DNA of 64,000 bases, taken from the NCBI GenBank assembly GCA_964106915.2, contig OZ066921.1; one strand, written 5' to 3'. Both the position numbers and the translations under genes were made by a program. Below the pieces are notes generated by a model that did not search any database, was not told the origin of the DNA, and worked only from the letters and a program-made list of their open reading frames with translations. The DNA comes from Podarcis gaigeae. Its lineage: Eukaryota. This document shows, piece after piece, positions 39,840 to 61,234 of the stretch (position 1 is its first letter; each line of letters starts with the position of its first letter).

Positions 39840-40719
39840 GCAGCAGCACGACCAAAATGTGCTGTGATTCATTAATGCAACCCCATCCTAGCCACAGCTA
39901 AAGTGGGAAGCTTGCTGTATTTCCTCTCCATCTGACCCCACTTACCTGTCTTCATTCATATTGCCCTGAAAATTTAAAGGAGGCATAGAGAAGAATCACA
40001 GCTTTTCATGTGAGGCTTTACACCTTACTAACCAAGGCTCACTCTTCACATGCTTTTCTTTGGAAGTGTACAGTACCATGAGGGCTGGTTGTGGGTGTCA
40101 TGTGTGCGAGAAAGGCCCCCCAAAGAGGAACTCTTTTATTCTTTGTTTCACAGGGCTTAATCCTATAATGTAGTTAGAAGCAGGCTATGTTGGGTCTTTG
40201 CTATGGCCCTCCTAAAATGGTGTGTTGCAAGGGAAATGTCAGGCAAACGCCTTTGAAATCCAACTATGAAACTTTAGCCCTATTTGAAATATCCTAGCAT
40301 ACCTTTGTGCAGATATTTCCACATAAAGACACATCTTGACCCTGTCCTGCTGTTTTCTCACACGTGCACACCTGTGCTTAAAAAAAAAATGTAAGTGAGG
40401 ATGCTTTCATACAGAGTGTTGTCAAAGCTGTAAGGTTGCAGGAGATTTAAATGACCTGCAACTCCTTAGCCAATTGCTAGATAGCAAATAAGAGCTAAGG
40501 AAGAGGGATTTACTCTGCACAGGTACCTCCCCTGCTCCATCATATTAATAAGCTCATCTGCAAGTTATTTCCCCTGCCCTCTCCTGGAAAAACAAAACGT
40601 CAGCAATTTAGAATAGTGGTTTTGTATGCCTAGGAGGAAGACAGTGGTGAGGTACTATCATTTCCGCCCCCTAGTGAAAATTGCAGCTTTGAGAAGATTG
40701 TTTGCTCTGCACTCTGCAC

Positions 40720-42480
40720 ATGTTCAAGCGGCGCGTTCTCACGCTCCAACGAAACGTCTCTACCATCTTTGCGGCTCCAGTGTGCTACTCGAGGCAGAAC
40801 CTTATATTTCTCTGGTTTGGGGGACGGTTGTTTGCCGGAGAGAGGGTGGAGAGAGATTCGCTGGCAGTCGTGCGGGCGGTTGCTGATCGCAAGGCGTCTC
40901 TCCCCGCCCCCGCCCCCCAAAAAGTCTTGGCCTCCGCGAACCGGAGTCAGCGGAGGGGCGCGCTGGAGGGAAGCAGGGCGCCGCTGCTCTTTGTCAAGGG
41001 ATTTGCGCTGCGACCTCCGCCCCAGGCGAAGGGGGAGACCCAGACAAGGCGGGGGAGGGGTTGTTTCTCCCCTTGAACCAGCAAGATTCCTTTTCTCCCC
41101 CGCGGACCAGGCTCAGCGCCCAGCCGCGTTTCCCGCTGCTGAGCGGCCGGGTCCTTGACTGGCGGGGCTGGATTTCCGCGCCTCGATCTGCCCGTGGCCG
41201 TTGGCTTCGCCGAGCCCGCTTGGGGCTCACTAAGGCCGCCCCCATCCTACCTCCTCCCCGCTCCGCCTCGCCTCGCCTGCTGGTCCCCGCCTCCTTCCTC
41301 CCTCCCCGCTCTCCCTCCCCGCCACTCGGCGCGTCCCCTCCCCTCGGAGTTGGCAGCTCGGTGGCCCAGCCGGAATCTCGCAGCCGTTGGCGCTGAGGGC
41401 CGGAGCTCTCCTGCCGGAGTTGGGCTTCCCGGGAGGGGGGCGGACTGCTGCTTGGTCTCGCCCCGCCGGCCCTCCTCCAAGGGCGAGCAAGAGGAGCGGC
41501 CTGCCAGCCAGCCAGCCAGCCGTCGCGCGCTCTGCATCCCTCCATCCGAGCGAGCCTCGCCGCGCAGCCTTTTGTTCCCCCGGCAAGAAGTTTGTGCGCT
41601 GAGAAGGGCCGTGACAGCTGCAGCCCCGTTAGGGAGCACAGAAGAGGGGGCGGCGGCGGCGGTTCCTGCTCCTGCTGCTCGCTTGACATGCAGCCCACGG
41701 CTCGGCTCGGCGGGGACGGCTGCCGGGGGAGGCGGGCCCCGCTCTTGCCGCCGCCGCCGCCGCGACGCACAAAAGGCTCCAACTAAACTTCCCTCCTGGA
41801 GAGCGAGCAAGCAAGCGGGGAGAGCTCCGTCTGCGCGGCCCGAGCATGGTAGGAACCGAGAGCCGCCCGGCGAGGACACCGGCAGCCGGCTGTCCCGGCC
41901 CGTCCCCTGCGGGGGCGCCTCTGCTTCTGTCCGCCGGCTGCCGCCGCCCTTGAGCGAGGGAGAAACGCCGAGCAGACTTCGCCACGAGATTCCCAGGCTG
42001 CACGGGGAGAGCTGCCCGCCTACCTTCCGGGGCCTTTGCTAGCGGTGCTGAACCACCTATCCCGTACGCCGGCCGAGGATGCTGGGCAGACTGGAGGCGC
42101 CCGACGTCGCCCGGCATGAAGAACTTCCTGCGCTGGGACCGCGAGGGATCTCCGCCGCCGGGCGCAGTCCGAGCCAGCCGCGCCGCGCGGAGGGGCCGAC
42201 GAAGCAGCCTCTGCAAAGCGCAGTTCTGCCCAGGCATGGAGGCGCGCGGGAGGCCGGGCCTTTGTTCCGCCAGGAGATCGCGCTCTGCGGCCGCCTTCCC
42301 GAGAGCTGGCCTTTTCCTCGCCGCCGCCGCTGCTGAGCTTCCGACCGGGGCGCCCTCTGGAAGAGGCTTTGTCGGAGCGGGCTGGAAGGCTTGCCTTAAG
42401 GAGAGCAGCCCTACCGAGCAACCGGAGGAGGCGGAGGGCTTGCAAATAGCGATCGGCAAAAACGGCTTTATGTGTTGGCC
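40720..42480 (+). promoter_or_regulatory. Intronic CpG island / internal promoter and 5' leader for the KIAA0754-type exon
   Basis: Abrupt rise in GC and CpG density against a CpG-depleted background; GC boxes (CCCCGCCCCCGCCCC at ~40901, several GGGGCG/GGCGGG) and CCG/GGC runs; lies directly upstream of the long ORF. Confidence 0.88.
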
Positions 42481-42782
42481 TTGGACTGCTAGCGTTTCCG
42501 CAGGAGCCATGGAATGCCTTGCCTCTTTCAAGGACTTCCACGGTGGAAGATGACTTCTCTCTGGAAAGCTCTGTAACTTCTGTGGAATACAAAATTGTGG
42601 CCTCCCAAGTGGTTATTAGGGATTTTCAAAAGACACCTTGCTCCACCATAATCTATTTCATTTTGCTTTGAATGGAGAGCTTGTGAGGCAGGGGAGGTTT
42701 TTTCTTGTTGTTGTGGGACTCTTCTCTGCGGGGTCCCCCCCCATTCTATTCTGTTCTGTTTTCTTTTATTGTTTTGAAAAGT

Positions 42783-45700
42783 ATGGGCAAGCCACTCAGC
42801 AGGCCTGACTGTTTAAGGCAGAGTCCTGCTTGCTTGGGGAAAGGAGAGGATGAGGATGGGTATATAGAAGACTGTTACGTCCCTCAGAGGTCCATCTACG
42901 ACACCATGAGGATAAATGAGCAGATTGATCAGGGGTCTAAGACTAGCCAGCCTTCCAAGAGTACCCTTGAAAAAGGGGATGGCAGCACAATTTCTAGCAA
43001 TGGAACTTTAGGGGCACCCAGTGTCTTTGAATCAAAGGCACCCGAGAGCAAAAAGTTAGACGAGAGGGTCATTTTTGATGCCTTGAAACTTAGTAGTGAT
43101 GTTTCCAAGTCAGCACCGGCACCCCCAAGGCGGCGGCCAAATCCAGAGAAGAAGGAGAATGTCAACAGGCGGTCATGGAAGTCCTTTATGCCACCCAATT
43201 TCCCTGAGTTTGCTGAGAGAATTGAGGCCTCCTTGAGTGAAGTCTCAGAAGCTGGAGTTTCTAACCCATCCTTGCAAGAGAAGCAGGAGTCCACTGCCAT
43301 GTTGGCAGAGAGCCCTAGGCAGTCCGACCAGGGGGAATGCATGTCAGAGCCGTTGACCCTGGAGCACATTCCCAAACTGTCTGGAGTTCCAGAAATTCAG
43401 GAAGTGAAGCAGCTAAGTGAAGCCTTCTGTGAGTTGTCTCAGGATGAGTGCCAGCCTCTTCTGGGACCAGAGGACATGGTAGTTGACCTGACCGGCGGCA
43501 GGCGGCGGGACCACAGGCTCTCGAGCGCCACGTGGCCAAGGGTGATGAAAAATGCCATCAGAGCAGGCCTTGGCAGTGGGCATCATGACACCTTGGAGGC
43601 AGACAACACAGACTGTGTCATAGAAACGGTGCCACTGTCTCCTTGCCTGAGTGAAGAGCTCCTGGACCCAGGAATGAGCATTCTCATCGCCCCCAACCTC
43701 CGGGAAAAGACTGAGTCGGAGCTGAGGTTTGAGGAGGATGAGCGATTGATCATGATGGAGGCTGGGGAGGAGTGGGAGGAAGGCTTGCTGTCAGGGAAGG
43801 CTGCTGAGAAAAGAAGTTGTTACTTGACAGATATTTCTGAAGAAAAGGAACAATTAAGTGTTCCAGCCGTGACAGTTATGGAAGCTGTAGAGAGTTTTGC
43901 TGGTGTCCAAGGGACCTCTAACCACCCATCTCACTGGCAAGAGCTGTGGGATGACTCACAGCTGCGAGCTGTCAACTCTGCTCCCGTTCCCCAGGAAACG
44001 CACCAAGACTTAAACGCTACTCTTGAGGAGGAGGAGGCTGATGCCTGCAATGCTGAAGCTGTAGCAGCCGAAGTGGAAGAGGAGGAATTTGTTTCTGGCC
44101 TAGAAGCCTGTGCCTTCTCTCTTGCCCCAGAGCAGTTCTCTGATACTGATTCTGTGCAGATGTTCCTTGAACTAGAAAAGCTTTGCATGCTCGAAGAAGG
44201 AGGGGATGGAGTGGCTCCAGGTGATCTGGAGGTGCAGGATGCTAATCAGTGTTCAGAAGGGCTGGACATGCAGAAGGACTTGGCAGGAGCCTCCCAGCCC
44301 TTGACTCACCTTGAAGTCAGCATGGCAGACTCTGCTGTGGTCTCAGATCTGGAGGACTTTGATGCCACATGTGGTTCTCAAGCAGTAAGTACAGCAGAAG
44401 CTACCCTTTCAGAGTGCTACTCTGAACGGGAAACTTCTGGTGACTCTGAAAAGGTGACGTCTTCCAGTCCTCCGCTTGAAAAAGATGCTGTATCCCAACA
44501 ATCACTCTCATCCTTAGTTAGTCAGATAGAGGAGTATGGGGCAGAACTGTTGGCAGGTCACGACCCTGCAGAAAGCCAGAGGGTCAAAGGATTGTTGGAC
44601 TTTGCCATGGGTGAACCTGTGGCTTCAGTTGATTTCCCTTGCTGTAGAGAACCACCTCCTTGCATCCATGTTCTTGCCATTGGCAGAGAAACTGAGCAGC
44701 AGCAAATGCAGCCTGTCATTTGCTATGAAGCAAAGGAGGTATCCCCGAGCCATGATGAACTTGCCACAACTGCTGAGGAGCTGGACTCCCAACCAGATTT
44801 TGACTTGGCAAAAGAGATGGTGAGTGCTATGGGGAAAGAGCTGCAGGCTTGCGATGAGCTCAACCCATCAGAAAGGACTGACTTCTCCAACTGGGATGTC
44901 CCAGAGCTGGTTTCTGAGGATGAAGTTGCAGAACTGGATAAAGAAAACCTCCTTTGTGGGGGCCACGTTAGTGACATAGAGGATGTAGATAGTTCCTTGG
45001 TGCCTTCACAAAGTGAGTTTGTATTGCGGGACTCTGAGGAGCCTCTAAAACGTGTAGGCTCCTCTGAGAACTTGAAGGCTGTGTGTCAACTTGAGCCTTT
45101 AACAAGGCTGCTGTGTGATGGAGAAGTGTCAGCGAGTGCAGCCCTTCTCCAGGAGGAAACGCCAGAGGTAGTTGAGCAGGGAGCAGCAGCAGCAGCCAAA
45201 GGCAGCCCAGTGGAAGAGAAGAGATATTGCTTGGAACCTGGAGACTTGGAGTTCCTTTTTGGGCAGAGCAGGGACAGTGAGATAACAAAGGATGAGGAAT
45301 GTAGTGCCAAGTTTGTGTGTACCAACTCACAAGCTTTTGTTGAAGATTTGTTTGCTGCACAGCCCAGTTCAGAAGACTTGGCTGCCTCTTTTGGAGAGGA
45401 ATCTGCTTCTGTCAGTCCCCTCCCTAGTGACAAGGCTCTTGATGCCCCTCCAGATAGCCCAGAGGAGCTTGCTGACCCCTTTCCTTCTGCTGGAGTGGGG
45501 CCTTCCATCACTGATGGTCCAGCAGCTGTAACATGTTCCACCCTGCCTTTGCCATCCTCACTTGCTTCTACCCCAGAAGCAGAAGGGCCTGTTGTGGATG
45601 CTGCCTGCTTATCCAGGTATAAAGAAGTTTGTGGTCAAGATTGTCTTCCAGGAGTCACTTCGGAGCCCAAAGCAGAGGACCTGATACCATTCTTACCAAA

Positions 45701-46142
45701 TGCAGAGGAGATGTCCTCTGCTTCTGTGCCATTCTCCTTGGAAAATATGCCTCTAAGTAGAAAGGAACAGCCTGCTCTGGAAGAGCTGGCCAATGCCACA
45801 ATGCCCACCTCCACCAAGGAGCCTGTTCAGGTGGCCCAAGCGATTAAAGGCCTTGCCATCTCTATGCCATTGGGTGCAGATGGTGTGCCAGAGCCACCAG
45901 AAGTTGGTTTCTCTCTGGCACCTGGAGCAGTGTGGGATACAGTCTGCAGCACACCACAGCTGCCCTCTTCTGCAGCACCTGAAAGTGAAGAGGAGCTGCT
46001 GACCTCTGCTGTGCCAGATTCAGAAAGTACCTCCTTTTCTTCCCTCGTTGCTGAAGGGCCTCCTGCTGAAACGGATGGATTGGTTCCAGATAATGAGGTA
46101 TTTGTTTCCCCTGGTCCCCACACGCTGCCGTATCAGACATAA
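42783..46142 (+). CDS. KIAA0754: KIAA0754-type nested intronless ORF (1,119 aa if unspliced) / alternative first coding exon of MACF1 (1,105 aa up to the donor at 46097)
   Basis: ATG in strong Kozak context (AGTATGG). N-terminus MGKPLSRPDCLRQSPACLGKGEDEDGYIEDCYVPQRSIYDTMRINEQID and blocks MPPNFPEFAERIEASLSEVSEAG, PLSPCLSEELLDP, LREKTESELRFEEDER and SDTDSVQMFLELEK match recalled human KIAA0754, which lies inside MACF1. Confidence 0.9.
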   Translation: MGKPLSRPDCLRQSPACLGKGEDEDGYIEDCYVPQRSIYDTMRINEQIDQGSKTSQPSKSTLEKGDGSTISSNGTLGAPSVFESKAPESKKLDERVIFDALKLSSDVSKSAPAPPRRRPNPEKKENVNRRSWKSFMPPNFPEFAERIEASLSEVSEAGVSNPSLQEKQESTAMLAESPRQSDQGECMSEPLTLEHIPKLSGVPEIQEVKQLSEAFCELSQDECQPLLGPEDMVVDLTGGRRRDHRLSSATWPRVMKNAIRAGLGSGHHDTLEADNTDCVIETVPLSPCLSEELLDPGMSILIAPNLREKTESELRFEEDERLIMMEAGEEWEEGLLSGKAAEKRSCYLTDISEEKEQLSVPAVTVMEAVESFAGVQGTSNHPSHWQELWDDSQLRAVNSAPVPQETHQDLNATLEEEEADACNAEAVAAEVEEEEFVSGLEACAFSLAPEQFSDTDSVQMFLELEKLCMLEEGGDGVAPGDLEVQDANQCSEGLDMQKDLAGASQPLTHLEVSMADSAVVSDLEDFDATCGSQAVSTAEATLSECYSERETSGDSEKVTSSSPPLEKDAVSQQSLSSLVSQIEEYGAELLAGHDPAESQRVKGLLDFAMGEPVASVDFPCCREPPPCIHVLAIGRETEQQQMQPVICYEAKEVSPSHDELATTAEELDSQPDFDLAKEMVSAMGKELQACDELNPSERTDFSNWDVPELVSEDEVAELDKENLLCGGHVSDIEDVDSSLVPSQSEFVLRDSEEPLKRVGSSENLKAVCQLEPLTRLLCDGEVSASAALLQEETPEVVEQGAAAAAKGSPVEEKRYCLEPGDLEFLFGQSRDSEITKDEECSAKFVCTNSQAFVEDLFAAQPSSEDLAASFGEESASVSPLPSDKALDAPPDSPEELADPFPSAGVGPSITDGPAAVTCSTLPLPSSLASTPEAEGPVVDAACLSRYKEVCGQDCLPGVTSEPKAEDLIPFLPNAEEMSSASVPFSLENMPLSRKEQPALEELANATMPTSTKEPVQVAQAIKGLAISMPLGADGVPEPPEVGFSLAPGAVWDTVCSTPQLPSSAAPESEEELLTSAVPDSESTSFSSLVAEGPPAETDGLVPDNEVFVSPGPHTLPYQT

Positions 46143-47189
46143 AATTACTTTTTTTGTAGGAAGGGAGTTGGGGAGGAAGCGAGGAGTTAATCCATAGTTG
46201 ACTGAGTGATGTAATTTGGAGTACAAAGCATGCCTGAGTTTTTCTCCCTTTTGTTAAAATTTGGGTTCTCCTTCCCTTTGAAAGGGGGTTACATTTTGTA
46301 GGCAGATTTAATGGTCTTGATAGAAACAGTGTTGGGTTGGTGGGCTTCTTTTTCTTTTCAGGTGTGGGGAGGGTTTCAAACAAGAACAAACCTGTCATTA
46401 TCTTGCTTACGTAAAAATATTCTTGCCACCACCAATGTCTTGAACTGACTTATTCAAGTAGCATTATGTTCATGCGCTTAGAAGCAAATTATACATTTTC
46501 TTCTGAAAGATTGTGATTAAGTGTGGGTAGCTGCAGAGCTCATAGATGGGAAAATGTGTTGCTAAGAGGGAAATAGTATAAGGCAAATTCCAGCTAACAA
46601 CATTACATAAATGATAAAAACCAACCAACTGCCTAGTCAAGGTTCTTTCAAATCCATAGAGAAGAAAAGAAGTTGCTGAAAACTTTTTATTTAAATCTCC
46701 AAGTAAAGAAGGGGTTTGGAAAAGAGAAGCTTTTGTGCCAAGTCTGTTTGCAGCACCAAACGTCTATAAAAGGGCATTGTTTTCTTTTGGATACTGATTT
46801 TGACAGTTGTCAACCAAGCTAAGCTAGTTTTTTGTACTTTTTAAACTGTCATGACGTTGGTTTTTCCCCCCTACCCCCCTGCCTAGGAACTTGGCTTGGT
46901 TGCAATTTCTCACGCTTCAGACAGTTGCACATTTGAAAAACAAGAAAAGCAGAAGTAGCCAGAGGCTTGAGAAGGGCTATGATGTAGTGTTCAATTCACA
47001 TGTGGAAAACAGTCTCCAACTGTGGGCAGAAGGCTGAGTTTTTCTCAGTGAAAAAATGCAGCACCCACAGCCAAGACTGTACAGTTCAGACCTGTAATTA
47101 GGAAGAAAGGTGGGGGGGCAGGGGATGCCAAGCTAAGCCAAACTGACATGAATTATCGCTCTGGGTTTATTACAGTCTGTCCAGCTGAG

Positions 47190-47225
47190 TCTGAGGAGAG
47201 AGAGCTATCTGAGGAGAGAGAGCTA
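47190..47225. repeat. 18-bp tandem duplication
   Basis: TCTGAGGAGAGAGAGCTA x2. Confidence 0.9.
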
Positions 47226-47906
47226 TTTGATAGAAAACATTATCAGTCCTATGGTGCCCAGAGTGGGAGATATTTGCTCAACACCCCAGGGTCAAAACAG
47301 CCAGGGAAGTATATGGAAGGTGCTCTTAGCTGTTGCCACGGTTGGTTCTACAGGGGAGAAGAGAAGCTATGAGGGGTTATGGGGCATTTCACACATTGCC
47401 AAACTGTTGTGCTGCTAGGTATGAGATAGGATCTCCCACTTTTTAATATGGTGCAAAGCAGCTGTGAGCCCCCAAACTGGATGGTTGGAACTGCACTAGG
47501 GAGAGAGTGTTTAGTTGCTGCCACTTACTCGACCATCTCTTGTTTTCCTGATCTAATCCTCCATTCTCACTTTAGCTGTGTGATGATGGGGGAACGAGCA
47601 AGCACATTAGGCAAGAAGCCATGACTTCTCCTGGCTTTCTGATTGGTGTGTCTGCATGATACATTTATTGCAAGTGTGTGTGTGTTGCATTTGCACTTGG
47701 ATAAAATATAAACCAGCTGTTAGGTAGGAGAAAGAGGTCAGCAAGTTTACCATAAAGAATGGGAACAGGATACTAGAAAAGAGTCTTGAGAGAAGCATCT
47801 TGTAAATGAAAGCCTGGTAGCATCATTAGGAGGGCAGGGAAGCAGAGAATAACAAACAGATGAATTCTGTTTATTTTCTGGGTAATTCTGCAGGACTTGC
47901 TTCCAA

Positions 47907-48128
47907 ATTCATTCATTCATTCATTCATTACATTTATATCCCACCTTTCTCCAGGAAGCTCAGTATGGCCTACAAGCTTCTCCCCATTTCTTAATCACAA
48001 CAACCCTGTGAGGTGGGTTAGACTGAGAGTGAGTGGCTGGCCCAAGACCACACCCAGTGAGCATCATGGCTGAGTGGGGATTTGAAGCCTGATTTCCCAG
48101 CACTCTAACCACTACACCACACTGACTC
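47907..48128 (-). mobile_element. Older CORE-type tRNA-SINE with (CATT)n tail
   Basis: Reverse complement starts GAGTCAGTGTGGTGTAGTGGTTAGAGTG, homologous to the 4532 element. Confidence 0.75.
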
Positions 48129-48790
48129 CTGTGAATAGGAACACGGACTGGCATTCTCCACCCCAAACACACGCACATTTAGTTTCTCTATTGGGCTAAC
48201 CCAAATGTCACAAAATGGTACAGAAGCTTTTAAGTTCGCCAAAACTTTTCATTGGTCTAGGTGGGAAGAAGGTACTTTTGTCAAGCCATCCATTTCTGCA
48301 TCTGGTAAGAGTCTTAAGATGAAGAGTGGGAAGAGGTAGACCCCCCTTTTCTCCCCTCACATATTTACTGTCTAAAAATGGCCCTTCCTAGTGTAGCATC
48401 ATCCAGATTTTTTGAACTACAGTTTGGTTGTGCTGACGGGCTGACGGGAGTTGTAGGACAGTGTGTCTTGAAGGTGCCATGGTGGGGAAGGCTGGTGTGA
48501 GGAAAAAGGCCGCATGCTGGCCCTCCTATTGCAAGGCAGTTAGTGTCTGTCCTCCCTTTTCTTTTGCCCTCCAGTCTTTCCTCCTCCTGCTGCTTTTGCT
48601 TCTCTGAATCAGGGAAAGGTTTGCGCCTTTGTCCAAGTGAGAGCTAGCCAGCCAGCGCTCTGGCATCCTCTCCGCGTTCTGTATTTGAAGCTCTAAGCTA
48701 TGCTTCCAAGTATTTTCTGCCGAGGCGGTTGTTAAGGCTGGGTTTTGCGTTTTTAAGCCTCCCCCACTAAACCTGTCTCTGGTTTCTGGA

Positions 48791-48902
48791 TCATTCCCAC
48801 CCAAATATGGCAGCTGTTCCTGATTGTGGGTGGGGGTGGGGATTTTGCTTGAACAGAGCGAAATGCTTTGGAGTCCTCTCCTGTGTTCGTTTTAAAAATA
48901 AA
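48791..48902 (+). promoter_or_regulatory. Candidate muscle-type enhancer (CArG + E-box + GT box + MEF2)
   Basis: CCAAATATGG 48801-48810, CAGCTG 48811-48816, GGGTGGGGGTGGGG ~48828-48841, TTAAAAATAA 48892-48901, CATTCC 48792-48797. Confidence 0.55.
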
Positions 48903-48989
48903 TTTTGTATTTGAGGTTATGGCCGGAGCGTGTAGGAAGAGGTGGCGGCATGTCCCTTCAGAGAGCTTGCATGCCTGGCTTATCGGTCT

Positions 48990-48990
<1 letters not shown>

Positions 48991-49034
<44 letters not shown>
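48991..49034. repeat. (GT)n microsatellite
   Basis: Direct reading. Confidence 0.95.
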
Positions 49035-49035
<1 letters not shown>

Positions 49036-50936
49036 TGGCTGCTGTTGCATGTAGGAGGGCCCTTTCCATTTATATCTATCTATAAAATATATAATATAAA
49101 ATAAGCAGTCCCAGCAGAAGGGCTGGGTGAGTCGTTTGCTGTTATGTTGCCATCAATCCTTCTTATGGCAGAATGGCTCTATAGCTCTGGACAGCATCTT
49201 CATTTAATATCCTGGCATGTTCCCATTTCTGGAGACAAGTTGCTGAACGTTGCAAGGAAGGAAAACATTTCCCCCTGACTTTTTCAAGCTTAGATTCTTG
49301 CTGCCTTGCATCACAGCTGTCTCGCTCAGGGCCCTCCGTAAACCATAGGGAAGTTTGGGCACAGTTTTGTTTGGAAGTGGCTGCTAAATCTTTAGCTGGC
49401 TGCAAAGCTTTAGAAATGTGTTGCTGTTCCTAATTTTCTTATGAACAGAGCAATTTGTTGCTTCAGTTTGGTGGTTTTTGCTGCTGATTTACTTTTCATG
49501 TGCCACTTTCCCCTGGGAGCAAAGGGCTCCTTAAAGATCACCAAAAACTACCTCGCCAGGTGTTTTGGACTACAACTCCCATCATCCCTCACCATTGTCT
49601 ATGTTGGCAGGAGTGGGAGTCCAGAGCACCTGGGGAGGCTGTGAATGAGTATGAGCGTGCTTTTTCTTTCTCCCACTCCTGCTGCTGACATTTATCATGA
49701 CACCCCTATGAGGTAGGGCAAACTGACAAATAGTGGTGATTCAGGGCTATTGGATGAATAAGAGACTTCGTCCTGGGAGTCTTGTGTTCTAGCAATTACT
49801 CAGCAGCTTAAAAAAACCCCCAGCAACCAGGTACTAAGAAATTGCGGGGGGGGGAGGGGCATGTTGCGTAATGCACTGCTTGAAATTTGAATATTTTTTC
49901 AGCTCTGGACCTTAATACATTCGGTCATGGTTAAATGCCCTATGGGATTTAATCACGCATCAGTTTTTTTTATTATAAAACAAAAGTCTGTAGTTTGAAG
50001 TAATTGTGTTTAAATGCCACAGCAGATGAATTCTACCACTTACACCTGCACAAATCATGCATTTTAATATGATATTTACAGAATTGCTGTGTGTTGACTT
50101 GATCTTTTGGAAAGGCACCTGATAAATCTTGTTAATAAAAAAAAGGGTTCTCCCAATGAAGCATGAGAAAGAGGCTCTTCTGGGTGGTGTATCTTGGCAA
50201 GATCCCAGCAAGACAAAGCTCTCTGTTATAACTGAACCAGTGTCTGTAGCTTTCGAGTAACACAAAACTGCTTGCCTAGACCAGATGTGCGGAACTTCAA
50301 GTTGTTGCTGAAATACAACAACTCCCACCATCCTTGGTCTTCAGCCATGCTTTCTGGAGCTGATGGGAGTTGCAGTTTGGCAACATCTGGAGGGCGAAAG
50401 GTTCCTTGCACCTGGTCTCAGTGATATGCCAATAGATGTTGGCCCAATAAGAAGAAGCATTAAAGACAACTTTTTGTTTTAAAATGGAGGTCCAAAGGAA
50501 GACTGCCAGGATGTAGGAAGATGCCTAATCTTAAGTCAGACTATTGGTCCATATAGCCCAGGAGTATCTACACAACTGGCAGCAGGTCTCTAGGGATTCC
50601 TTCCCACCCCTACTTGGATACAGTGAATGTATTTATTCTGTCTTCTGTCCCAAGCAGAAAACATTTGCTGCCTCCGAAGTAAGGTGTGCACAGAACTGTC
50701 TCTTGCAGTGCATGATGGCAGCCTTCGTGCACAGAGTAAGAACCAGTCCAGGGGCTGCATGCAGCTGGTGTGGCTCGAAGGGCATGGTGGGATGGGAGGC
50801 TCTTCTGCCCTTTTTCTCGCCTCCTTCTGAGGAGAGGAGTTTGCTCAAGGGCAGCTACCCTTTGAGTGTCACTCTCAGTGTGGCCTCTGACCACTTCGGG
50901 TGCTCTTCACGCAGCTGTCTTGCAGGGCAGTGGGGA

Positions 50937-50938
<2 letters not shown>

Positions 50939-50985
<47 letters not shown>

Positions 50986-51040
50986 TTATACCCTACCCAT
51001 CCAGTAGGGTTTCCCAGCCACTCTGGGCAGCTCCCAACAG
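50939..51040 (-). repeat. (AAT)n microsatellite adjoining a short retroelement 3' tail
   Basis: ~14 AAT units followed by TTTATACCC...CCAGCCACTCTGGGCAGCTCCCAACA. Confidence 0.75.
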
Positions 51041-51171
51041 ATTAAATGCAATGCCTCTTCCTTTAATTTGCCACCCTGGGCAACTGCCCTGTTTTCCTCC
51101 TGTAAATACAGTGTGCCCGGAGATGCTGGGGATTGAATCTAGGAGCTTCTGCATGCAAAGCAGTTAATTAT

Positions 51172-51380
51172 AAGAAGAGCCTTGATAGGCCAGAGGAACT
51201 GACTAATCCAGCATCCTGTTCTCCTGCTGGCCAGCAAGATGGGAAGCCTGGACCTGAATGCAGCCATGGAGGCAGAGCATAGCCATTGTCGCTAATTGCC
51301 ATTGATAGCCTTCTCCTCTGTGAATTTGTCTAATATTTTTAAAGCCATCTAGGTTGGTGACTATTCCTGCATCTTGTGAT
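51172..51380 (-). mobile_element. CR1 LINE 3' fragment
   Basis: Reverse-complement homology to 35417-35738 (CCATTGATAGCC...GAATTTGTCTAAT...TTTAAAGCCATCTAGGTTGGTG). Confidence 0.65.
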
Positions 51381-53871
51381 AGGTGCTCTTCCATGCAGCT
51401 ACAGCCCTTCCCATAAGTTGAATCAATGTAAGCTGAAGGAGAAGGGACTGTGTGCATTTTAAAAGGAAGTTCTGGAAGAGAAAGGGCAGCAAGAGGAGCG
51501 GGAGGCAGCTGGGAAGAGAATGAGGTGCTAGACCAATCAAACAGGAATGATATGGTCAGGTGTGGGGGAGGGGAAGGCGCTGGAATGACAGTTGATGTTT
51601 CTCCAGGACAGCATCAAACCTTCAGGTGTTTATTGACTCACATAACTCCTTTGTGTTCATTAAATAAAAAAATAGTAAATCCAGCCCTCTATAAAGAACT
51701 TTGAAGATCACAGTGAAAATTTTTGCGCCAGACATGGAAGTGAGGCAGAAGGGATTGAGATGCAGGTTTAGTAAACTCATCCTTTGCTCTGTCCCTACAA
51801 AAAGGAAGTTGCAGCATAAAGTATATCCTCCTTAATTTCCATCTGCCAGCTTGGCTTTGGGCCTCTGCTGTTTAGCAACCATCCAGGGCAAGCAGTCCTA
51901 TGTCATCTGCCACTATGGCTGCTGTTGATGGTTCCTTGGAGTTTGCCCAGCTCTGTGTGAAGCAGGCCACTGTTCTTCCCATTCCACAGGGAGGGAACCA
52001 AGTGACATGAAAGAGCAACATGCCATGCGCTCTATCGTGGTATATTATCAGAACTCCCAGAAACACACAGGGCTTGTCGTCGTCACTGAGATCAGTTTAC
52101 ATGTGCAGCTGGGAGTCAACAAGCTGAGAATCAGGCAGTCCAAAACATATCTAAACTGGTCCTTAGTGGGCTAAGGGTCTCTTTCCAGGGATGCTTTAGC
52201 CAGACAGTGAGCAGTTTGGATGAGCCTTTTGTGTAGGAATTTGTGTTAATATGAATCTCTTGATTCCAGCCATTGGATTCTTCCCTACCTGTGATCATAT
52301 GTATTCTGGGAGTTGCAGAGGTTTGGCGTTTCACGTGCCCACATGGCTAAATGGCCTCTTCTGCTGTAGTGTTCCCAAGTGAAGGAGCTACCTGCCTTCC
52401 CCTTTTTCTTAATTCCTCCTCTGCTACCATTTCCCCTTCACAGGAGCCTCCCTTTCCTGGGAAGGAGAAATGGCAGCTCTTTGTCAGAGTCTTGTCTGTC
52501 ATCAGGTACTTTTCAGAAGATCCAGGGCTCCCTGATAGGAACAGCCTTCTCCTGATTTTATCTCACACTTTCTTCCCTCCCTTTATTTCTAAACCTTGCT
52601 TTGCCTTATGGAGCTTTTTATTTCTCACAAGGTCGTGGGAAGATCTTGGAGATTGAGCAATTGCACTCATCTTTCTTTTGTCTTTTTGAGTGATAATGCA
52701 GCAAACTTTCCGTATGTTTATGATACCTTGTGCATGTGGAAGGCAGTGTATAGGAAGCAGTTGTGCAGCTGGTGTGAACATGCTGTGGAATGTGGTGCTC
52801 TCTCCAGCGGTGTTGAGAGAAGGAGGTGGATAAATTTTTCTCCAAGAGAGAGAGTGAATTATGCCTGTCAACCTTACAGAGGAGTGTGGGTGTGTAGCTA
52901 ATCTGGCTTTTCTGGTGCAGGAGGTGGTGGTGGAGAGAGATGTAGCTGCTGGCCACTTTGCCTTCTAGGGCCACATGTTGTGTTTCAGTACAGCCTCATT
53001 TGTTGCCATGACTTTTCCTCCAAGCTCTAAATGCAACAGAGCTAACACTTTTCTTGTCTATCAGGTTGGCTGGCTGGTTTTTACAGAGATACCCTTTATA
53101 GCTCAGCTGCATTTTCTTTCTTTTTGCTTGCGTTTAAAACCTTTTTCCAGAAGTGAAACAAAACTCCAGATTCCTCTCTGCAAATACCTTTATATTCTCA
53201 GCTCAAGATACTGATAGCCAATTAGTAAGCTAGTCCATTCTCATTAACTTGCTATGTCTGCAAGCTTCATTCATGGGTTGGTGTGATCTGTAAATGAAGT
53301 CTGGCATTCATATGTAGGAGATGCTCTCAGCCACAGCTGGAGACAGAATGAAATGGTTAGCCAGTAGCCTCCAGGGATTGCCCTAAGGCAGCCTTCATCA
53401 ACTGGGTGTGCTCCAGATATTTTGTACTGCAACTTGCATCAGCTCAGCCAGCACTGCCAATATTCAGGAATGATGGGAATTGTTGTCGAAAGGTCTTGGG
53501 GATACAAGGCAGGCCGAGGTTGCCCGAAAGTACTGAGCAACTTCTTGCCAGTCTGGTGTTAGATTTAGATCAATGTTGTGTGCTGACAGAGACCTGGATT
53601 CAAATCCCTCCATAGCCTTGATGTTCACTGACAGCCAGTCATCTTGACCTTGGGACAGTAAGAATCTCCACTAATGCATCATCTATCTCACAAGTTTGTT
53701 GTTAGGATAAAATTGAAGTGGGGCTAACCATGTACAGTATGCTGCCCTGAGTTCCCGGCCTGATAAAACTATAGCAAATAAGAAGGCTAAGTAAGACAAC
53801 TGATGATTTGTGATGGAGGTTGACATCCTTTGTCTCTCCCTCCCCCATCCCCCGCTTCCATGTTTCCTCAG

Positions 53872-54033
53872 ACATTCCAGAAGGAGCAAGTTGACCCCCT
53901 TCAGGCAAAACTGCAGCAAGTCAATGGGCTCGGACAGGGACTCATCCAGAGTGCGGGAAAGAATTGTGACGTCCAGGGCTTGGAACATGACATGGAGGAC
54001 ATCAACACCCGCTGGAACACCCTCAACAAGAAG
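53872..54033 (+). CDS. MACF1: MACF1 coding exon ([26 protein letters not shown]...WNTLNKK), phase 0/0
   Basis: Acceptor ttcctcAG|ACA, donor AAG|GTGAGC. Confidence 0.95.
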
Positions 54034-54771
54034 GTGAGCTGCACTTGGTGGCTCCTCGGCATTACTAACAATGTCCTTCTGCTGGGAGGAGCAGTGGGAT
54101 ACAGCCTGCAGGCACACAAGGTGACCACCTTGCAGAACTAACCAGGCCTGAACATGGTTGATGCCTGGATGGGAGATGCCTTGGGAACCCCAGGTATGCC
54201 ACTTTGGGTTCCACGATGGAAGAAAGGTGGGATTTAAAATGCACTTCAACTATATTGCATGGGAGCTGTTAGGATGCAGGAGGAGGGTGCCTGCCCATGA
54301 GCAAAGTGAAGATAATTGTCAGTGAAGTCCAGGCCACCTAGTGCTAGGCATGGAGAATGGATGTGGGCCTTTCCACACACACACACACACAGTGTCTTCA
54401 AATACTTTTCTATTTCTGCGTATAAAAGAAGGTAAAAGGGGCACTCTTAGGGAAGTGGCTGGGGGTGGGAGATAATTGTGTCTCCCGGTGGATCTGTCCA
54501 CCATTGAGAGTTGTGTTTGCTTCTCTATAGATTCATTCTGGATTCTGTTCCTTGGTCACCCTAGAGAGTGACCAATTATTGGGAAATTGATTTTTACATA
54601 AATGTTATTAGTCACTTAAAAAAAAAAAGAACTCAAGGGAAGTAATGTTCTACCTTGCAGGGTGACTGTGAAAATGAAGCGAATCTGAGAAGCACTCTTT
54701 CCAAATGGTTGACCAGTAAATGCTTCTGTAGCAATATATATGTGTGACTGTTATGTTTTGGCAAAATGTAG

Positions 54772-54942
54772 GTGGCACAGAGGATTGCACAGCTGCAGGA
54801 AGCCCTGTTGCATTGTGGGAAGTTCCAGGATGCCTTGGAGCCTTTGCTCAGCTGGTTGGCCGACACGGAGGAGCTCATCTCCAACCAGAAGCCACCATCT
54901 GCTGAATATAAAGTAGTGAAGGCTCAGATTCAGGAGCAAAAG
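54772..54942 (+). CDS. MACF1: MACF1 coding exon ([18 protein letters not shown]...AQIQEQK), phase 0/0
   Basis: Acceptor atgtAG|GTG, donor AAG|GTGAGG. Confidence 0.95.
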
Positions 54943-55461
54943 GTGAGGAGTTGGTGGCCGGGGGACCTTGAATTCACAGAGCACAGCTGGCTGGCAGGAC
55001 CCACCATGGCCTCTCTCTGCTTTGGGCACTCAGCTCCACCAGCAGCCCCAGGTACCCCCAGTTGACAGGAAAGGTTTCACTTGCTTTCCTTTTGGCAGAC
55101 AGCTTCTACCTACCACCTGTGCCATGTCAAATAAGCAGGAGAAGGAAGGAAAGAGGTTGGTAGTTGGTGAGCTTTGGAGAACAGAGAGGGGACAATATAG
55201 GGGACAGACACCCAACCTTTAGTGTGGAGACAGCCCCCACTAGGAATGGCATAAAAGGCAGCCTTTGTTGGGTGAGTTCTGGGAACTTGAAGTTGATGGT
55301 GGTGAGTGAAAGGGGAGAAAGAGGGCACAGTTAAAAGTGGTAGGAGGGAAATGTGAGTTTAGCAGAGGGAGAACCCTGGGGACCTTTGGCCTTACTGAAA
55401 GCAGAAGGGTAATTCCTTCCTTAGCAGAATAATTATCACTTTCTAATTCTTTATTCCAAAG

Positions 55462-55628
55462 TTGCTCCAGCGTCTCCTGGATGACCGGAAAGCTACTGTC
55501 GAGATGATCCAAGCAGAGGGTGGGAGAATAGCTCAGTCTGCTGAACCAGCAGACAGGGAGAAGATAGTTGCCCAACTGGAGAGCCTTGGAAGCCACTGGG
55601 CAGGACTTCTCAGCAAAGCTACAGCCAG
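55462..55628 (+). CDS. MACF1: MACF1 coding exon ([21 protein letters not shown]...LLSKATA), phase 0/2
   Basis: Acceptor ttccaaAG|TTG, donor CAG|GTAAGC; translated by hand. Confidence 0.93.
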
Positions 55629-55664
55629 GTAAGCTACAAGGCCTGTAGGATGCAAGCTTGTCTG

Positions 55665-55731
55665 TTGTAATTTAGCACTGAAGCGAGAGAAAGTAACCTT
55701 GTAATTTAGCACTGAAGCGAGAGAAAGTAAC
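55665..55731. repeat. 34-bp tandem duplication
   Basis: TTGTAATTTAGCACTGAAGCGAGAGAAAGTAAC(C) x2. Confidence 0.95.
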
Positions 55732-55766
55732 TCTCCCTGCAAAGTATACTTTGATGTTCTTTTGGT

Positions 55767-55950
55767 AAGCTGCCTTATACTGAGTCGGACCATTGGTCCA
55801 TCTAGCTCAGCACAGGCTACTCTGATTGGCAGCAGCTCTCCAGGGTTTCAGGCAGGGAGCCTTTCCCAGCCCTACCTGGAGATGCTGCTGGGAGCTGGAC
55901 CCCTTGGGGCTTCTGCATGCACAGCAGATACTCTGCCATTGAGCTGTGGT
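55767..55950 (-). mobile_element. tRNA-Ala-derived SINE
   Basis: AAGCTGCCTTATACTGAGTCGGACCATTGGTCCATCTAGCTCAG...CAGCCCTACCTGGAGATGC...CTTCTGCATGC. Confidence 0.7.
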
Positions 55951-57355
55951 CCTTTGCTCTGGTAACCCTGCTGTTTCATAACACAAGTTATTTTATAAAC
56001 TGTGACTACCTGTGCAATGCACACAATAACTTTGCAAAACAAGCTGTTAAAGATGCCGTCTCATGCCTGTGCTCTGAATGAAATCACTCTGAACTTCTGA
56101 GCCATATGGCTAGGACATTGCAACTGAGTGTGGTTAGCAGGACTGAAGAATACAAACTGTGTCTGTAGGATGGGATGCACTACTTGCAGGAGAGTCTCTT
56201 GCTTGTAAAACTCACAAAAACCCCCTCTTGATCCTGTGAGTCCCAGAGCACCATGAGCAGCACATGTGGAACATGCTTCTGTGCCACACTATTTCTTTCT
56301 TCTTTAAAATATTTATCATCTGCCCTTCACTCGAAGGTGCCAAGATAGAAATATGTGCAGTATAAACTAAAACCAAACTATAAGATTAAATCAGCATAAA
56401 ACAAAAATACAGAATTCAGATACCAATAAAACCAGCAGTGGTAGCAGGTAACCTTTGGCCATCCAGGGCCAGTCCAGGATGTTTTAATGTCTGTGGAGGG
56501 CAGTCCTCAAGACCTCTCTTGCAGATGTAAGAAAAAGGGGAAGGTCCCCTTTCAATGAATGGTAGCTGTGCAAGAACAGATAACAGCTGTGGTTCACTTC
56601 AGAGGAGGCAGTCAGTGCAGGAGAACTTTATGTTAGTGGATTTTGACCTGTGCATCAGCTCTGTGTTACTCTCTGCTGCCCTTTAGCTTACCCCCAAGCT
56701 GCTACCTCACCCTCCTACTTGGGGTTGGGATGGAGTGTTTCTTCCAAACTCAGTTTATATTGGCACACCTGTGGGCTCATCATTACACATGACTGCATGC
56801 ATACCGCTTTCCCACATATGTGAAGCAACCCACAGACCAAAAAAAAGGTCTAAGGAACCATGTTCTGGGTATAAAGAGCTGTAGGTTCCCTCCCTCTGTC
56901 CCTAGAAGTTTCTGCTTTGCTTTGGGGGGGGGGGCTGTGTGTGCGTGAGAGAGAAGCTTTTCTGCACAGCTCTGGAATTAGATGGAAGTGTAAAATCCAA
57001 GGAAAGGGTTATCATTAATATTTTTTTAAACCTGGCAGTTGCATTCCAGCAACTCCACAGAGAATCAAGTGCAACATCTGTGAAAATGGCCTATATCAGC
57101 AATTTCTTCAAGCTGTATGTCTCTCCCCCCCCCCACCCCGCCTTGGCTTTCCCACATTTCCTAGACAGGTTTCATTCACATGGAGAAGGGGGAACCCCAC
57201 TCCTCCTTAGCCCCACCATGTCTAAACATGAGATTTCAGATCATCAAATCTTTTGCATGGGGCTACAAAAATTACCAATATTTTCACTGAACCCACAATT
57301 CCCTTCTTGCTCAATCATCACCAATTTAGGCGACATCAGTGTATATGTCATTAAG

Positions 57356-57512
57356 NNNNNNNNNNNNNNNNNNNNNNNNNNNNNNNNNNNNNNNNNNNNN
57401 NNNNNNNNNNNNNNNNNNNNNNNNNNNNNNNNNNNNNNNNNNNNNNNNNNNNNNNNNNNNNNNNNNNNNNNNNNNNNNNNNNNNNNNNNNNNNNNNNNNN
57501 NNNNNNNNNNNN
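57356..57512. other. Assembly gap (N run) adjoining the CR1 fragment
   Basis: Ns. Confidence 1.
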
Positions 57513-57950
57513 TTTATTCATATATTCATTGAACTGCATTTCTCCTCTTGTTACCCCCTGCCCTGTTTTGGAGACATCCTTTTGGAGCTCTTCACAGCCC
57601 ACTTGGTTGTTCATCATACTGAATACTTTGGTGTCATCCACAAACTTTGTCAGCTCCCTTCTCACTCCTGTCTCCAGACCATTCCTGAACAAGTTCAGGG
57701 GCACCATCGGCTTCAATGCACAGATCCTTCAGGAACTTTACTGCATGCTTCCTTCCTTCCATTGTGAGAACTGTCTGTTTATTCCCACACTCTGTTTCCT
57801 GTTCTTTAAGCAGCTGCTGATCCTTAAGAGGATCTGTCCTTTCACCCTGTGACTGCTGAGTTTATTCAGAAGTGTTTGGGGAGAGGGACCTTGTTAAAAA
57901 CTTTTAGGAAGCTCAACTATTCAGTGTCTGCCAGACTACATGTTTCAGCA
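57513..57950 (-). mobile_element. CR1 reverse-transcriptase fragment (decayed)
   Basis: Minus ORF LNLFRNGLETGVRRELTKFVDDTKVF...GCEELQKDVSK...MQFN resembles CR1 RT LFNIFINDL...KFADDTKL...LQKDL. Confidence 0.8.
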
Positions 57951-58077
57951 ATCTTATTGGCACTCCAAATCTTATTGGCACTCTCGAACTCCAAAAGGTT
58001 GATGAGGCAGGCTCTTGATACATTAATCCTGTCTTCAAAAAAGGGGGGTGGAGTTAATGACCCTGGAGGCTCTTGCC

Positions 58078-58172
58078 CATCCTTTGCCAAGATGATGCCC
58101 TCCAGATGTTGGCTGGGGCTGATGGGAGTAGTAGTCCAAAACATCTGGAGGGCATCATCTTGGCGAAGGCTG
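58078..58172. mobile_element. Palindromic MITE copy with perfect 25-bp arms
   Basis: GCCAAGATGATGCCCTCCAGATGTT (58086-58110) and its exact reverse complement (58140-58164). Confidence 0.8.
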
Positions 58173-58385
58173 TTCCAGCCAGTCCTGGAAGTCTCTTAAA
58201 ATGCTTTCTAGCAGAATCCCTGGTGCAAAAGCTGAACCTGGTTATCTGCTCAACTTTCTCATGATAAATACTCTGGGTGCTCATTTCATTCTTTGTTATT
58301 GCAGCAATGGCAAAGTAGCCTCATCTTCTTCCTCGTCCCCCCCCCCCCCATTGTTGCTGATGGATTTGTTTTTTTCTTGCCACAG

Positions 58386-58545
58386 GCAAAACCAGCTGGA
58401 GGAGATCCTGGTTTTGGCCAAGCAGTTCCACGAGACATCAGAGCCCATCTCTGACTGGCTTTCGGTGACTGAGAAGAAACTGGCCAACTCAGAGCCCATT
58501 GGGACTCAGACGGCCAAAATCCAGCAGCAGATAAGCCGGCATAAG
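58386..58545 (+). CDS. MACF1: MACF1 coding exon ([17 protein letters not shown]...QQQISRHK), phase 2/0
   Basis: Acceptor ccacAG|G, donor AAG|GTGGGC. Confidence 0.94.
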
Positions 58546-59638
58546 GTGGGCAAAGGGTTGCCAAGGAATTGTGAAATGTGGGGGTGACGGGGGAGCACTG
58601 TGTGGTAGGCACTTCAGTAAGAATAGCTGCTGCTGTGGAACCTAGGTACCTGAATAAGATTTGGGGGCGGGGGGAGGTTGGAAACATGCATGTCATAATG
58701 GAACAATCCTTAAGCCAAGTTGAGTTGGTTGGAATTCAGAATGAAGAGTCTCATGGTTTGTATCCAAGCAAAATGTTGAGCCTCAGAACATGCAGGACAA
58801 GACTGCCAATGACTACTACCCGTGATGACTTATGTTCTGCTTTCACTGTCAGACATAGTATACCTCTGAATAGCAGATGTGGGAATCAGAGACAGGTAGA
58901 ACGCCGATACACTTGGGTCCTGCTTGCAGACTTCCTATAGGCATTCGTTTGGCCAGTATAAGAGCAGGATACTGGGCTATTGGACTGATCCGGCAGCAGG
59001 GTTGTTCTTAGGTTTTTAACTTTAGTAGTTCCTAGCATATTTCCCATATCACTAAATCCTAGAATCCTGCACTTGGTGCAATCCTAGATGGGTCTGCTTG
59101 GAATAAGGTCCATTGGGTTTAGTGGGACATACTCCCAGCTAATTGTGCATAGGATTGCAGCCTTAGCGTGTTTGAACACTTGAGTGTTGTCACGTCAGCT
59201 CAGCCAATCGCAAGAAGGAATCATTGTTGGTGTCAATCAGGGGTCTCTGGGTAGGAAGAATCCTGGCTCATTAGAAGGGAATTGTGTGGGAGATACACCC
59301 CACCACACACACCTTTTCCCAAATTCAGTAACTTTTCCTCTTTAAGCTATGAAAATAGCAGCCACAGCTATAACTCCTGTTCATGAGATTACCTGGCCTC
59401 CGGAGAAGAATGAAACAAAACTCCCATCTCTCACTTTTCTTTATTTAAACAATTTATTTCATATATGTTATTGCCCTCATGGGTGGATATTTTTACTTTG
59501 AGTTTGCATGATCATCAGACACGCTCATTTCTCAGTTTTGTTTTAGATTTGTTTCCCGTTTATTCCATTTTCAGTCATAAGTTTCTGTCTGCTTGTTTTG
59601 TGTTCCCCCTTCTCTTAAACCATCTCATGGATCTCCAG

Positions 59639-59965
59639 GCCCTCGATGAGGAGATAGAGAGTCATGGCTCAGCTGTGGCTCTGGCAGTCAACACTGGACA
59701 GTCCCTGGCCTCCTTGAGCTGTCAGGCTGAGCAGGCCTCGCTGGCTGAGAAGCTTGACCTGCTTGAGTCCCGGTATGCAGAGGTTTGCGACCGGTGCGGC
59801 CGGAAGGCTGCCCTTCTTGACCAGGCCTTGTCCAACGCCCGGCTCTTTGGGGAGGACGAGGTGGAGGTGCTCAACTGGCTGGCTGAGGTTGAGGACAAGC
59901 TCAGCTCAGTGGCCGTCAAGGATTACAAGCGGGACATCCTGCAGAGGCAGCATGCTGACCACCTG
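59639..59965 (+). CDS. MACF1: MACF1 327-nt symmetric exon (ALDEEIESHG...RQHADHL), phase 0/0
   Basis: Acceptor tctccAG|GCC, donor CTG|GTACTG; 109 aa, about one spectrin-repeat length. Confidence 0.92.
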
Positions 59966-59976
59966 GTACTGACTCC

Positions 59977-59995
59977 TTTTCCCATCTTTCATGAT

Positions 59996-60049
<54 letters not shown>

Positions 60050-60072
60050 TTTCCCATCTTCCATGATGTATT
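59977..60072. repeat. (ATT)n tract enclosed by a 24-bp direct repeat
   Basis: TTTTCCCATCTT(T/C)CATGATGTATT at 59977-60000 and 60049-60072. Confidence 0.9.
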
Positions 60073-60712
60073 CTTATTCTTCTTATCTTTTCCTTTGTTT
60101 CTCTTGCTTTGAGTCTTTTGATTTTGATCTGGGCCATTAATATCTCCCTAGAACACCAGCCCCACCCTTGCTGCTGCCCCATACAGCCACCACACAAACC
60201 GGCGTTATTGCTGTGCCAAAGTGGAAAAAAGAGAGAGAATGATGACCAACCCTTGTCCCAGTTAAGCCTTTTAGAAGGTTGCCACCCTCTACTTAAAGCA
60301 GCCCTTCCCAAAGGCATAGGTTTTTGACTACAGCTCCCATCAGCCCCATGATCCTGGGGTTGATGGGGTTTGTAGTCCAGAACATTTGGACTTGGTTAGG
60401 AAAGGCTGGTGTAAGTATTCCTCCTAGCTTGATGCAGTGGTGGTCTGCCTAGGACTCTCCCTCCTCTTCTGTTTGGTAGAAATAGTGAGCATCATCAATG
60501 CCCTGCCTTCCTTAGGCTTCAGGCTGCTTCTGTGTCCCCTCCCAGGGGCTTCCTGTGTGGAAGGGAGCCACAGGTGTCTCTTGGGTGCCGCCTTTACTCT
60601 GTCAATGGGCTGGTGTTGTCTGAGCCCCAGTGGGGGAAACTTGTTTTGGTCAAAGAGGAGCCTCTCCAGGGGAACTTGCCTTTGACACAAGGTTTTTTCC
60701 CCACCTGCCTAG

Positions 60713-60797
60713 GCCTTGAATGATGAGATTGTGAACCGCAAGAAGAATGTAGACCAGGCCATTAAGAACGGGCAGGCCCTTCTGAAGCAAACCACAG
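60713..60797 (+). CDS. MACF1: MACF1 coding exon (ALNDEIVNRKKNVDQAIKNGQALLKQTT), phase 0/1
   Basis: Acceptor gcctAG|GCC, donor CAG|GTAAGG; translated by hand. Confidence 0.94.
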
Positions 60798-61234
60798 GTA
60801 AGGCTAACCAACCTATTGCACTCCCCACAATCCTTCCTGTCATTCTTCATTGACTTCTCTGTGCCAATGGCTGCAGAACATAGTACTTCCCCCCTCAAAA
60901 AGATTCACCCACTTCATTTCTTATTTTCTTATAAAGGGTTGCTTCAGGCAAACAGGAGTGGGGTTGAAAGCAGGGGCTTTAAATCCCAAGTATTTGCTGC
61001 TTTTTGCTTAGGAAGGCTTGTCATTTTCTAGAACATTAAGTATAGAAATTGTTTTATTGTTTTTAGCTTATTGAGTCTATAACATGTGGGGAGTTAATCT
61101 TATTTTATTCTACTTCGGTAGCTTTTGTTTGAGAAGTAGTTTCTAAGCCTGCAGATAAAGAGGCAAAACAAAAGAAGTCTCTAAACCAGATGACTAGAGT
61201 TTGCTGCAGCTAAACACTTGGTGGCTCCCTGCAG

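Follow-up and report, generated by a model that had tools for sequence, protein, structure and literature searches.

Spectraplakins are usually regarded as actin-to-microtubule crosslinkers, and an exon with its own start codon inside the spectrin-repeat region of one of their genes raises the question of what a protein beginning there would be attached to. The window studied here, a stretch of 64,000 nucleotides from Podarcis gaigeae, was found by homologue searches and a tree to be part of the MACF1 gene of a reptile, with squamate sequences as its best homologues. In the tree, which was built from 28 hand-picked rows and in which hagfish and the teleost third copy were not placeable (long branches), the window sequence clustered with the MACF1 copy of a snake (99/95 support), away from the dystonin clade. 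The ATG at 42783 opens an exon of 1,105 codons, and homologue and collinearity tests showed this to be an orthologous sequence nested within the MACF1 spectrin-repeat region. By sequence comparison it is the KIAA0754 exon, which human and mouse annotations assign to MACF1 isoforms 6/7. The features of the locus are collected in Table 1.

Table 1. Features of the nested MACF1 exon and its surroundings in the window
Feature	Position	Strand	Basis
N-myristoylation signal (Gly2, Leu5, Ser6, basic residue 7) with S-acylated Cys10 (codon 42810-42812); residues 1-12, MGKPLSRPDCLR	42783..42818	+	conservation; human peptide with myristate and C18:0 probe
Cys17, candidate second S-acylation site	42831..42833	+	present in 179/180 homologues with the block
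Second near-invariant motif with predicted helix 38-49; residues 28-49, IEDCYVPQRSIYDTMRINEQID	42864..42929	+	invariant alignment columns; AlphaFold
Conserved stretch, predicted short helix; residues 92-103, LDERVIFDALKL	43056..43091	+	conservation; AlphaFold
Invariant RRSW, residues 129-132, right before Met136	43167..43178	+	alignment
Acidic spacer, residues 170-1105, 190 D/E against 52 K/R, poorly conserved, likely disordered	43290..46097	+	conservation; composition
CpG island; the short isoform's likely internal promoter (inferred activity)	40500..42499	+	GC 0.54-0.71; CpG o/e 0.76-0.95
GC-rich long 5' leader (~1.4 kb); upstream ATGs: 10, of which 3 have a strong Kozak context	41370..42782	+	contigs; ORF scan
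Intron GT..AG, phase 0, from the exon to the spectrin-repeat exons	46098..53871	+	joint in 4/4 runs; reading frame open across
Nine shared MACF1 spectrin-repeat exons	53872..63591	+	joints in RNA-type contigs over the first introns; collinear tblastn matches of named MACF1 proteins
First three downstream exons	53872-54033, 54772-54942, 55462-55629	+	part of the nine-exon set
Spectrin-repeat exons upstream, belonging to the long MACF1 isoforms; donor after 20649; the short isoform skips them	18012..20649	+	Pfam Spectrin matches; donor sequence

Translation of 42783-42845 (plus strand) gave MGKPLSRPDCLRQSPACLGKG, and residues 1-20 of the exon product contain Gly2, Ser6, Cys10 and Cys17 together with four K/R against one D. 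The start context (aaaagtATGG) has A at -3 and G at +4 and is a strong Kozak context, those of Met42, Met136, Met173 and Met187 being weaker than that of Met1. An in-frame TGA lies upstream at 42684, so that 42783 is the first possible in-frame ATG. The preliminary description of this DNA had picked out these four residues and the basic ones beside them behind a strong-Kozak ATG, and the translation and the start context confirmed what it had seen. Taken alone, the MGxxxS pattern is at chance level: among 997 ATGs with at least 20 open codons on both strands of the window, 64 began with MG and 6 with MGxxxS, three of these six having at least two Cys within 20 residues and four a strong Kozak context. 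It is because of its conservation among homologues that the motif stands above chance. No tandem repeat was found that would explain the region.

Conservation was determined in a set of 190 homologues, made up of all 70 matches from a search for long proteins and the best 120 of 225 from a second search. The N-terminal block was present in 180 of the 190 (in 170 of them at residue 1), and residues 1-6 and 8-12 were identical in every block carrier, MACF1 and dystonin alike, residue 7 being R in 179 and K in one. Conservation of the key residues, which had been proposed earlier as a check on the motif, was thus complete for Gly2, Ser6 and Cys10 (180/180) and nearly so for Cys17 (179/180). The ten homologues without the block comprised eight gene models beginning at Met42 and two with other N-termini; another observation was that ten gene models carried N-terminal extensions, which were unrelated between lineages. 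From residue 170 onward, identity was below 50% in most blocks of this set. An exhaustive search, carried out with a pattern that demanded G2, S6 and P8 and left Cys10 free, recovered the block in 45 of 54 representatives, with Cys10 in 45/45; position 7 was exclusively R or K, Lys7 occurring in hagfish and two other representatives. In the redundant set, the second Cys stood at position 17 in 247 of 251 blocks and at 18-20 in the other four. A metal site or a disulfide of Cys10, Cys17 and Cys31 was also considered and was rejected, the second Cys being at 18-20 in 4/251 and Cys31 being lost in the teleost third copy. The hagfish protein starts with MGKPLSKPDCL, retains motif 28-49 and contains 10 spectrin repeats; the module is therefore older than the split between jawless and jawed vertebrates. 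No invertebrate homologue was found among the 20 matches looked up by name, and a metagenome scan gave 431 pattern matches, none of which was confirmed.

For substrates of N-myristoyltransferase (NMT) that start with GK, a published rule reads GKXXSX, aided by Lys7 or a hydrophobic residue 5, position 7 being the residue read by the acidic loop of the enzyme; in the accessible text of that study, Lys3 is given as less favourable for NMT and the reference peptide carries Pro8 (10.1101/2021.06.22.449375). The G-K-P-L-S-R of the exon fits GKXXSX with a hydrophobic residue 5, and its Pro4 is not among the residues on which that text comments. Gly2 directly follows the initiator Met in the window exon, and the human N-terminal peptide likewise begins at Gly2. 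This peptide, GKPLSRPDCLR, is identical to the N-terminus encoded in the window and is found in a 2026 proteomics study of SH-SY5Y cells, in which matches were kept if MS/MS-identified in at least two of three replicates (PMC13386470). Supplementary file 2 of that study lists it under O94854 with n[210.1984] and C[676.4887] and classes it as dually acylated, and from the methods these masses correspond to myristoyl and to C18:0-DTB on Cys10. Intensities were recorded in 3/3 Alk-18 replicates and with none of the other three probes. The main text of the study, in the portion available, contains no mention of MACF1.

The N-terminus that the preliminary description had matched to the N-myristoyltransferase consensus fits the published GKXXSX rule, and its human copy was detected with myristate. 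The further claim made there of dual acylation, by myristate and by palmitate-type groups on the nearby cysteines, stood in part: Gly2 and Cys10 both carry an acyl group in the identical human peptide (PMC13386470), the group on Cys10 being an 18-carbon probe and not palmitate, and acylation of Cys17 was not seen in the lipidation data searched. We are highly confident that the N-terminal motif is acylated, and Cys17 is probably S-acylated as well. The support for dual acylation consists of a single peptide, seen with one of the four probes and in one cell line (SH-SY5Y). The database searched in that study held 20,467 entries, canonical only, and primate dystonin short isoforms share GKPLSRPDCLR; the peptide therefore fits MACF1 or dystonin alike. 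Two other placements of the modifications on it have an equal total mass, and both are also dual acylations; Lys3 was no allowed modification site in the search, as described in the accessible part of PMC13386470. The supplements of four further lipidation studies (PMC4200515, PMC10696250, PMC12316903 and PMC12394793) do not contain the peptide, and it was not among the rows listed in the supplement of PMC12955691, in which the O94854 row has 0 unique peptides and no NMT-inhibitor ratios.

Transcript evidence was obtained from 4 of 24 listed sequencing runs, which came from four studies of related species; their RNA nature was guessed, and exact GT..AG joints were relied on. In each of the four runs, one contig spanned the ATG at 42783 without a joint (contig starts at 41499, 41672, 42422 and 42317), and the splice from 46097 to 53872 was present at GT..AG in 4/4. 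Read-through past the donor at 46097 was seen in none of the four, only the spliced form being present. The RNA-type contigs begin within or slightly past the CpG island, and in the remaining 500-base bins of 39000-47000 CpG o/e was at most 0.36. The island, the unbroken contigs and the upstream in-frame stop are all compatible with a promoter of the exon's own, the contigs being blind to the start of transcription. What had been proposed as a nested exon is thus a spliced exon, as the contigs of the relatives confirmed, and probably a first one. Use of the KIAA0754-type exon as a first exon is likely rather than proven, because contigs cannot show the start site and 53 further joints lie outside those listed. 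In the leader, none of the 10 upstream ORFs overlaps the main ATG, and the upstream ATGs suggest a translational control of the short isoform. Four of these ATGs end at one common stop, at 42553.

The domain content of the protein was established from the homologues. The long-protein search gave 70 matches from 419 candidates, which were MACF1 or dystonin wherever they were named, and their domain listings included Spectrin in 70/70 and GAS2 in 62/70. When one MACF1 and one dystonin homologue were rescanned with Pfam, 15 spectrin repeats, EF-hands and GAS2 were found, and no calponin-homology or plakin family was detected in these two spliced homologues. It follows that the short isoform exchanges the actin-binding and plakin half for the KIAA0754-type exon, and the earlier view that it lacks the actin-binding end was upheld by this architecture. 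In terms of predicted domains, the spectraplakin gene yields here a truncated isoform that lacks the full spectraplakin architecture. Spectrin repeats were found by Pfam inside the window; the GAR exons of the genome lie beyond it, and GAS2 is known from the homologues. MACF1 and dystonin do not differ in the position of the junction between exon and rod.

Considering these data together, we regard it as probable that the short isoform is a lipid-anchored membrane-to-microtubule tether without actin binding, which would hold microtubules by its C-terminal GAR end. Transcription would start from the CpG island, and the mRNA would be spliced from 46097 to 53872 as in the relatives. After translation from 42783 and removal of Met1, NMT would myristoylate Gly2 in the reptile, as it appears on the human peptide. 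A ZDHHC enzyme would then acylate Cys10, whose acylation was recorded once in human cells, and probably Cys17, and this S-acylation would trap the N-terminus reversibly on a membrane. Which membrane is used would likely be decided by partners bound to motifs 28-49, 92-103 and 129-145. The acidic spacer and about 15 spectrin repeats would lead to the EF-hands and the GAR domain, as seen in the homologues, and the GAR end would capture and stabilise microtubules, an activity known for the domain. The module is also present in dystonin. The GAR domain is described as binding and stabilising microtubules, and in the Drosophila spectraplakin Shot as being autoinhibited through folding onto the actin-binding domain, in the parts of the literature available. 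A short isoform without an actin-binding domain would plausibly escape such ABD-to-EF/GAR autoinhibition.

The exon contains conserved elements besides the lipid signal. In the alignments motif 28-49 is as conserved as that signal, and it is likely a protein-binding or phosphorylation site. Neither this motif nor the dystonin copy of the exon with its identical tryptic peptide figured in the preliminary description. An AlphaFold model built from a 21-sequence alignment was mostly disordered, with short helices at 38-49, 94-104 and 140-151; it was of low confidence as a whole (mean pLDDT 57.6, pTM 0.18), helix 38-49 reaching a pLDDT of about 80. Motifs 28-49, 92-103 and 129-132 look like binding motifs that are not explained by lipidation. 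Nothing was returned for the N-terminal region by Pfam, a PDB sequence search or the ESM Atlas, and the whole exon product had no Pfam match. The tyrosine context in motif 28-49 varies by paralogue, being QRSIYDTM in 194/251 and QRSIYDTV in 51/251 blocks.

These elements give rise to the alternative that the acylated N-terminus is membrane-bound and serves mainly as a signalling or docking scaffold through motifs 28-49, 92-103 and 129-145, with tethering secondary or absent, and with stand-alone forms without the spectrin rod included. It would account for residues 28-49 being as invariant as the lipid signal and predicted to be helical, and for the two conserved tyrosines of the exon, whose YxxM- or YDxV-like contexts we take to resemble SH2-binding motifs. 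It would also accommodate three teleost third-copy proteins and human isoform 7, in which the module had no spectrin Pfam match (4 of 8 scanned, plus one more protein). However, all four runs were spliced without read-through beyond the donor, the stand-alone entries may be gene models of one exon that were truncated at the donor, and the exon-to-rod junction is identically placed in the two paralogues; we therefore consider a scaffold as the main role unlikely.

A second alternative is that the acylation serves other ends, such as shielding from a Gly/N-degron, binding of a lipid carrier or a regulated myristoyl switch, the protein being mostly cytosolic and on microtubules. All 12 residues are invariant, which goes beyond the need of NMT and suggests a specific binding partner. 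In Src-family kinases, however, dual acylation gives stable membrane binding. The second long acyl group on Cys10 makes a pair of the kind that binds membranes stably in HK1S, as far as the accessible part of PMC4736023 goes, and we find this explanation improbable. That the MACF1 copy is not made with a Gly2 N-terminus at all, initiation being mainly at Met42 or Met136 or behind a spliced-on extension and the mass-spectrometric peptide coming from dystonin or a false match, is very improbable: it can draw on the 10 upstream ATGs, on gene models beginning at Met42 or Met136, on a pyrimidine tract and AG right before the ATG at 42783 and on the peptide being common to dystonin, but an in-frame stop lies at 42684, Met1 has the best Kozak context, no joint among those listed uses the AG, which one contig crosses in each of the 4/4 runs, and MACF1-type copies keep the block unchanged from fish to human, the extensions being unrelated between lineages.

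The lipid-anchored tether was also compared with known systems. The MACF1 isoforms 6/7 of human and mouse (O94854, formerly KIAA0754) have the orthologous exon with identical residues 1-12 and the same junction into the spectrin rod, and they show no difference from the window exon at the motif. The dystonin short isoform comes from a paralogous nested exon, yields the same tryptic peptide and shares with MACF1 the identical residues 1-12, motif 28-49, the junction and the spectrin, EF-hand and GAS2 parts; it differs in a spacer of about 430 residues against about 1,100-1,400 in MACF1, and in some mammalian copies by an in-frame upstream Met. A review mentions one more exon that has been conserved in both dystonin and MACF1 and that may be an isoform of its own or an alternative start, the accessible text giving no function for it (10.1101/122010). 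The type-3 N-terminus of dystonin, BPAG1a3, is encoded by an alternative first exon and carries a conserved myristoylation motif, according to the available part of PMC3352950. That exon lies at the 5' end of the gene and gives a near-full-length isoform keeping CH2, whereas the exon here is internal and removes CH2 and the plakin domain. BPAG1a3 retains its plakin domain.

NMT substrates starting with GK (the HPCA/NCS1 family, ARF6 and TMEM106A/B) share G2-K3-x-x-S6 and a hydrophobic residue 5 with the exon, which differs from them in Pro4, in Arg7 instead of Lys7 and in the added Cys10. With proteins of the SH4 type (Src-family kinases, Gi-alpha and HK1S) the common trait is a myristate with a nearby S-acylated Cys; the cysteines are at 10 and 17 here and at 3-6 there, and the likeness is one of mechanism alone, without sequence homology. 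MACF1 was also reported to be myristoylated post-translationally at Gly5087 after caspase cleavage, yielding a C-terminal fragment without the actin-binding end, as stated in the accessible part of PMC4200515. That fragment is an apoptotic cleavage product without the conserved module or Cys10, unlike the exon here, which would encode its isoform from a promoter. No study of the lipidation or function of the short isoform was found in full-text literature searches, which leave most subscription journals outside their coverage, or in the available passages of PMC8500715, PMC9365387, PMC4736023 and PMC10696250. The exon is thus already known, and its dual acylation is on record solely as an unremarked supplementary row; what we would add is its reading as a tether.

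If this tether exists, it would be a second route for pinning microtubules to membranes, kept by the two paralogues since a time before jawless and jawed vertebrates parted. In its broadest form, for which we judge the chances to be even, short spectraplakins from internal promoters would constitute an overlooked class found throughout the vertebrates, hagfish and humans included, and made from both MACF1 and dystonin; in them the actin-binding and plakin half would be replaced by a reversible anchor of myristate and S-acyl together with a docking module, giving actin-independent and probably non-autoinhibited tethers that are switched by acylation cycles and spared by 5'-exon knockouts. Among MACF1/DST mutants, 5'-exon alleles would accordingly spare the short isoform and GAR-end alleles would not. 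Variants or altered expression that 36 listed papers assign to 'KIAA0754' may concern the short MACF1 isoform.

Several minor observations were made on the homologues and the locus. Some dystonin copies (P0204, P0205, P0276, P0277 and P0284-P0286) carry an in-frame Met 13 (and 41) codons upstream of the Gly2 start, and a protein without myristate could arise by alternative initiation there. In the teleost third copy, si:ch73-305o9.3, Asp9 is replaced and extra Cys pairs occur near the N-terminus. Among the proteins of this type (P0216, P0217, P0222, P0227 and P0232), the three scanned had no spectrin Pfam match, and the third copy may represent a lipid-anchored gene in its own right or a truncated gene model. 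In the window, the frame of the exon continues for 14 codons beyond the donor to a stop (46098-46142), which would give a stand-alone product like the annotated isoform 7. Of the coding differences between the relatives' contigs and the window, all of those listed, in codons 47-107, were synonymous (7/7), 137 further differences being outside this list. A non-canonical GT..AT joint from 41521 to 53399, with 21 letters on its short side, appeared in 2/4 runs and is probably a repeat artefact. Stretches with many contigs at 47900-51300, 55770-55900 and 57351-57728, together with a minus-strand frame, are ordinary intronic repeats, the frame being presumably a fragment of a CR1-type LINE reverse transcriptase.
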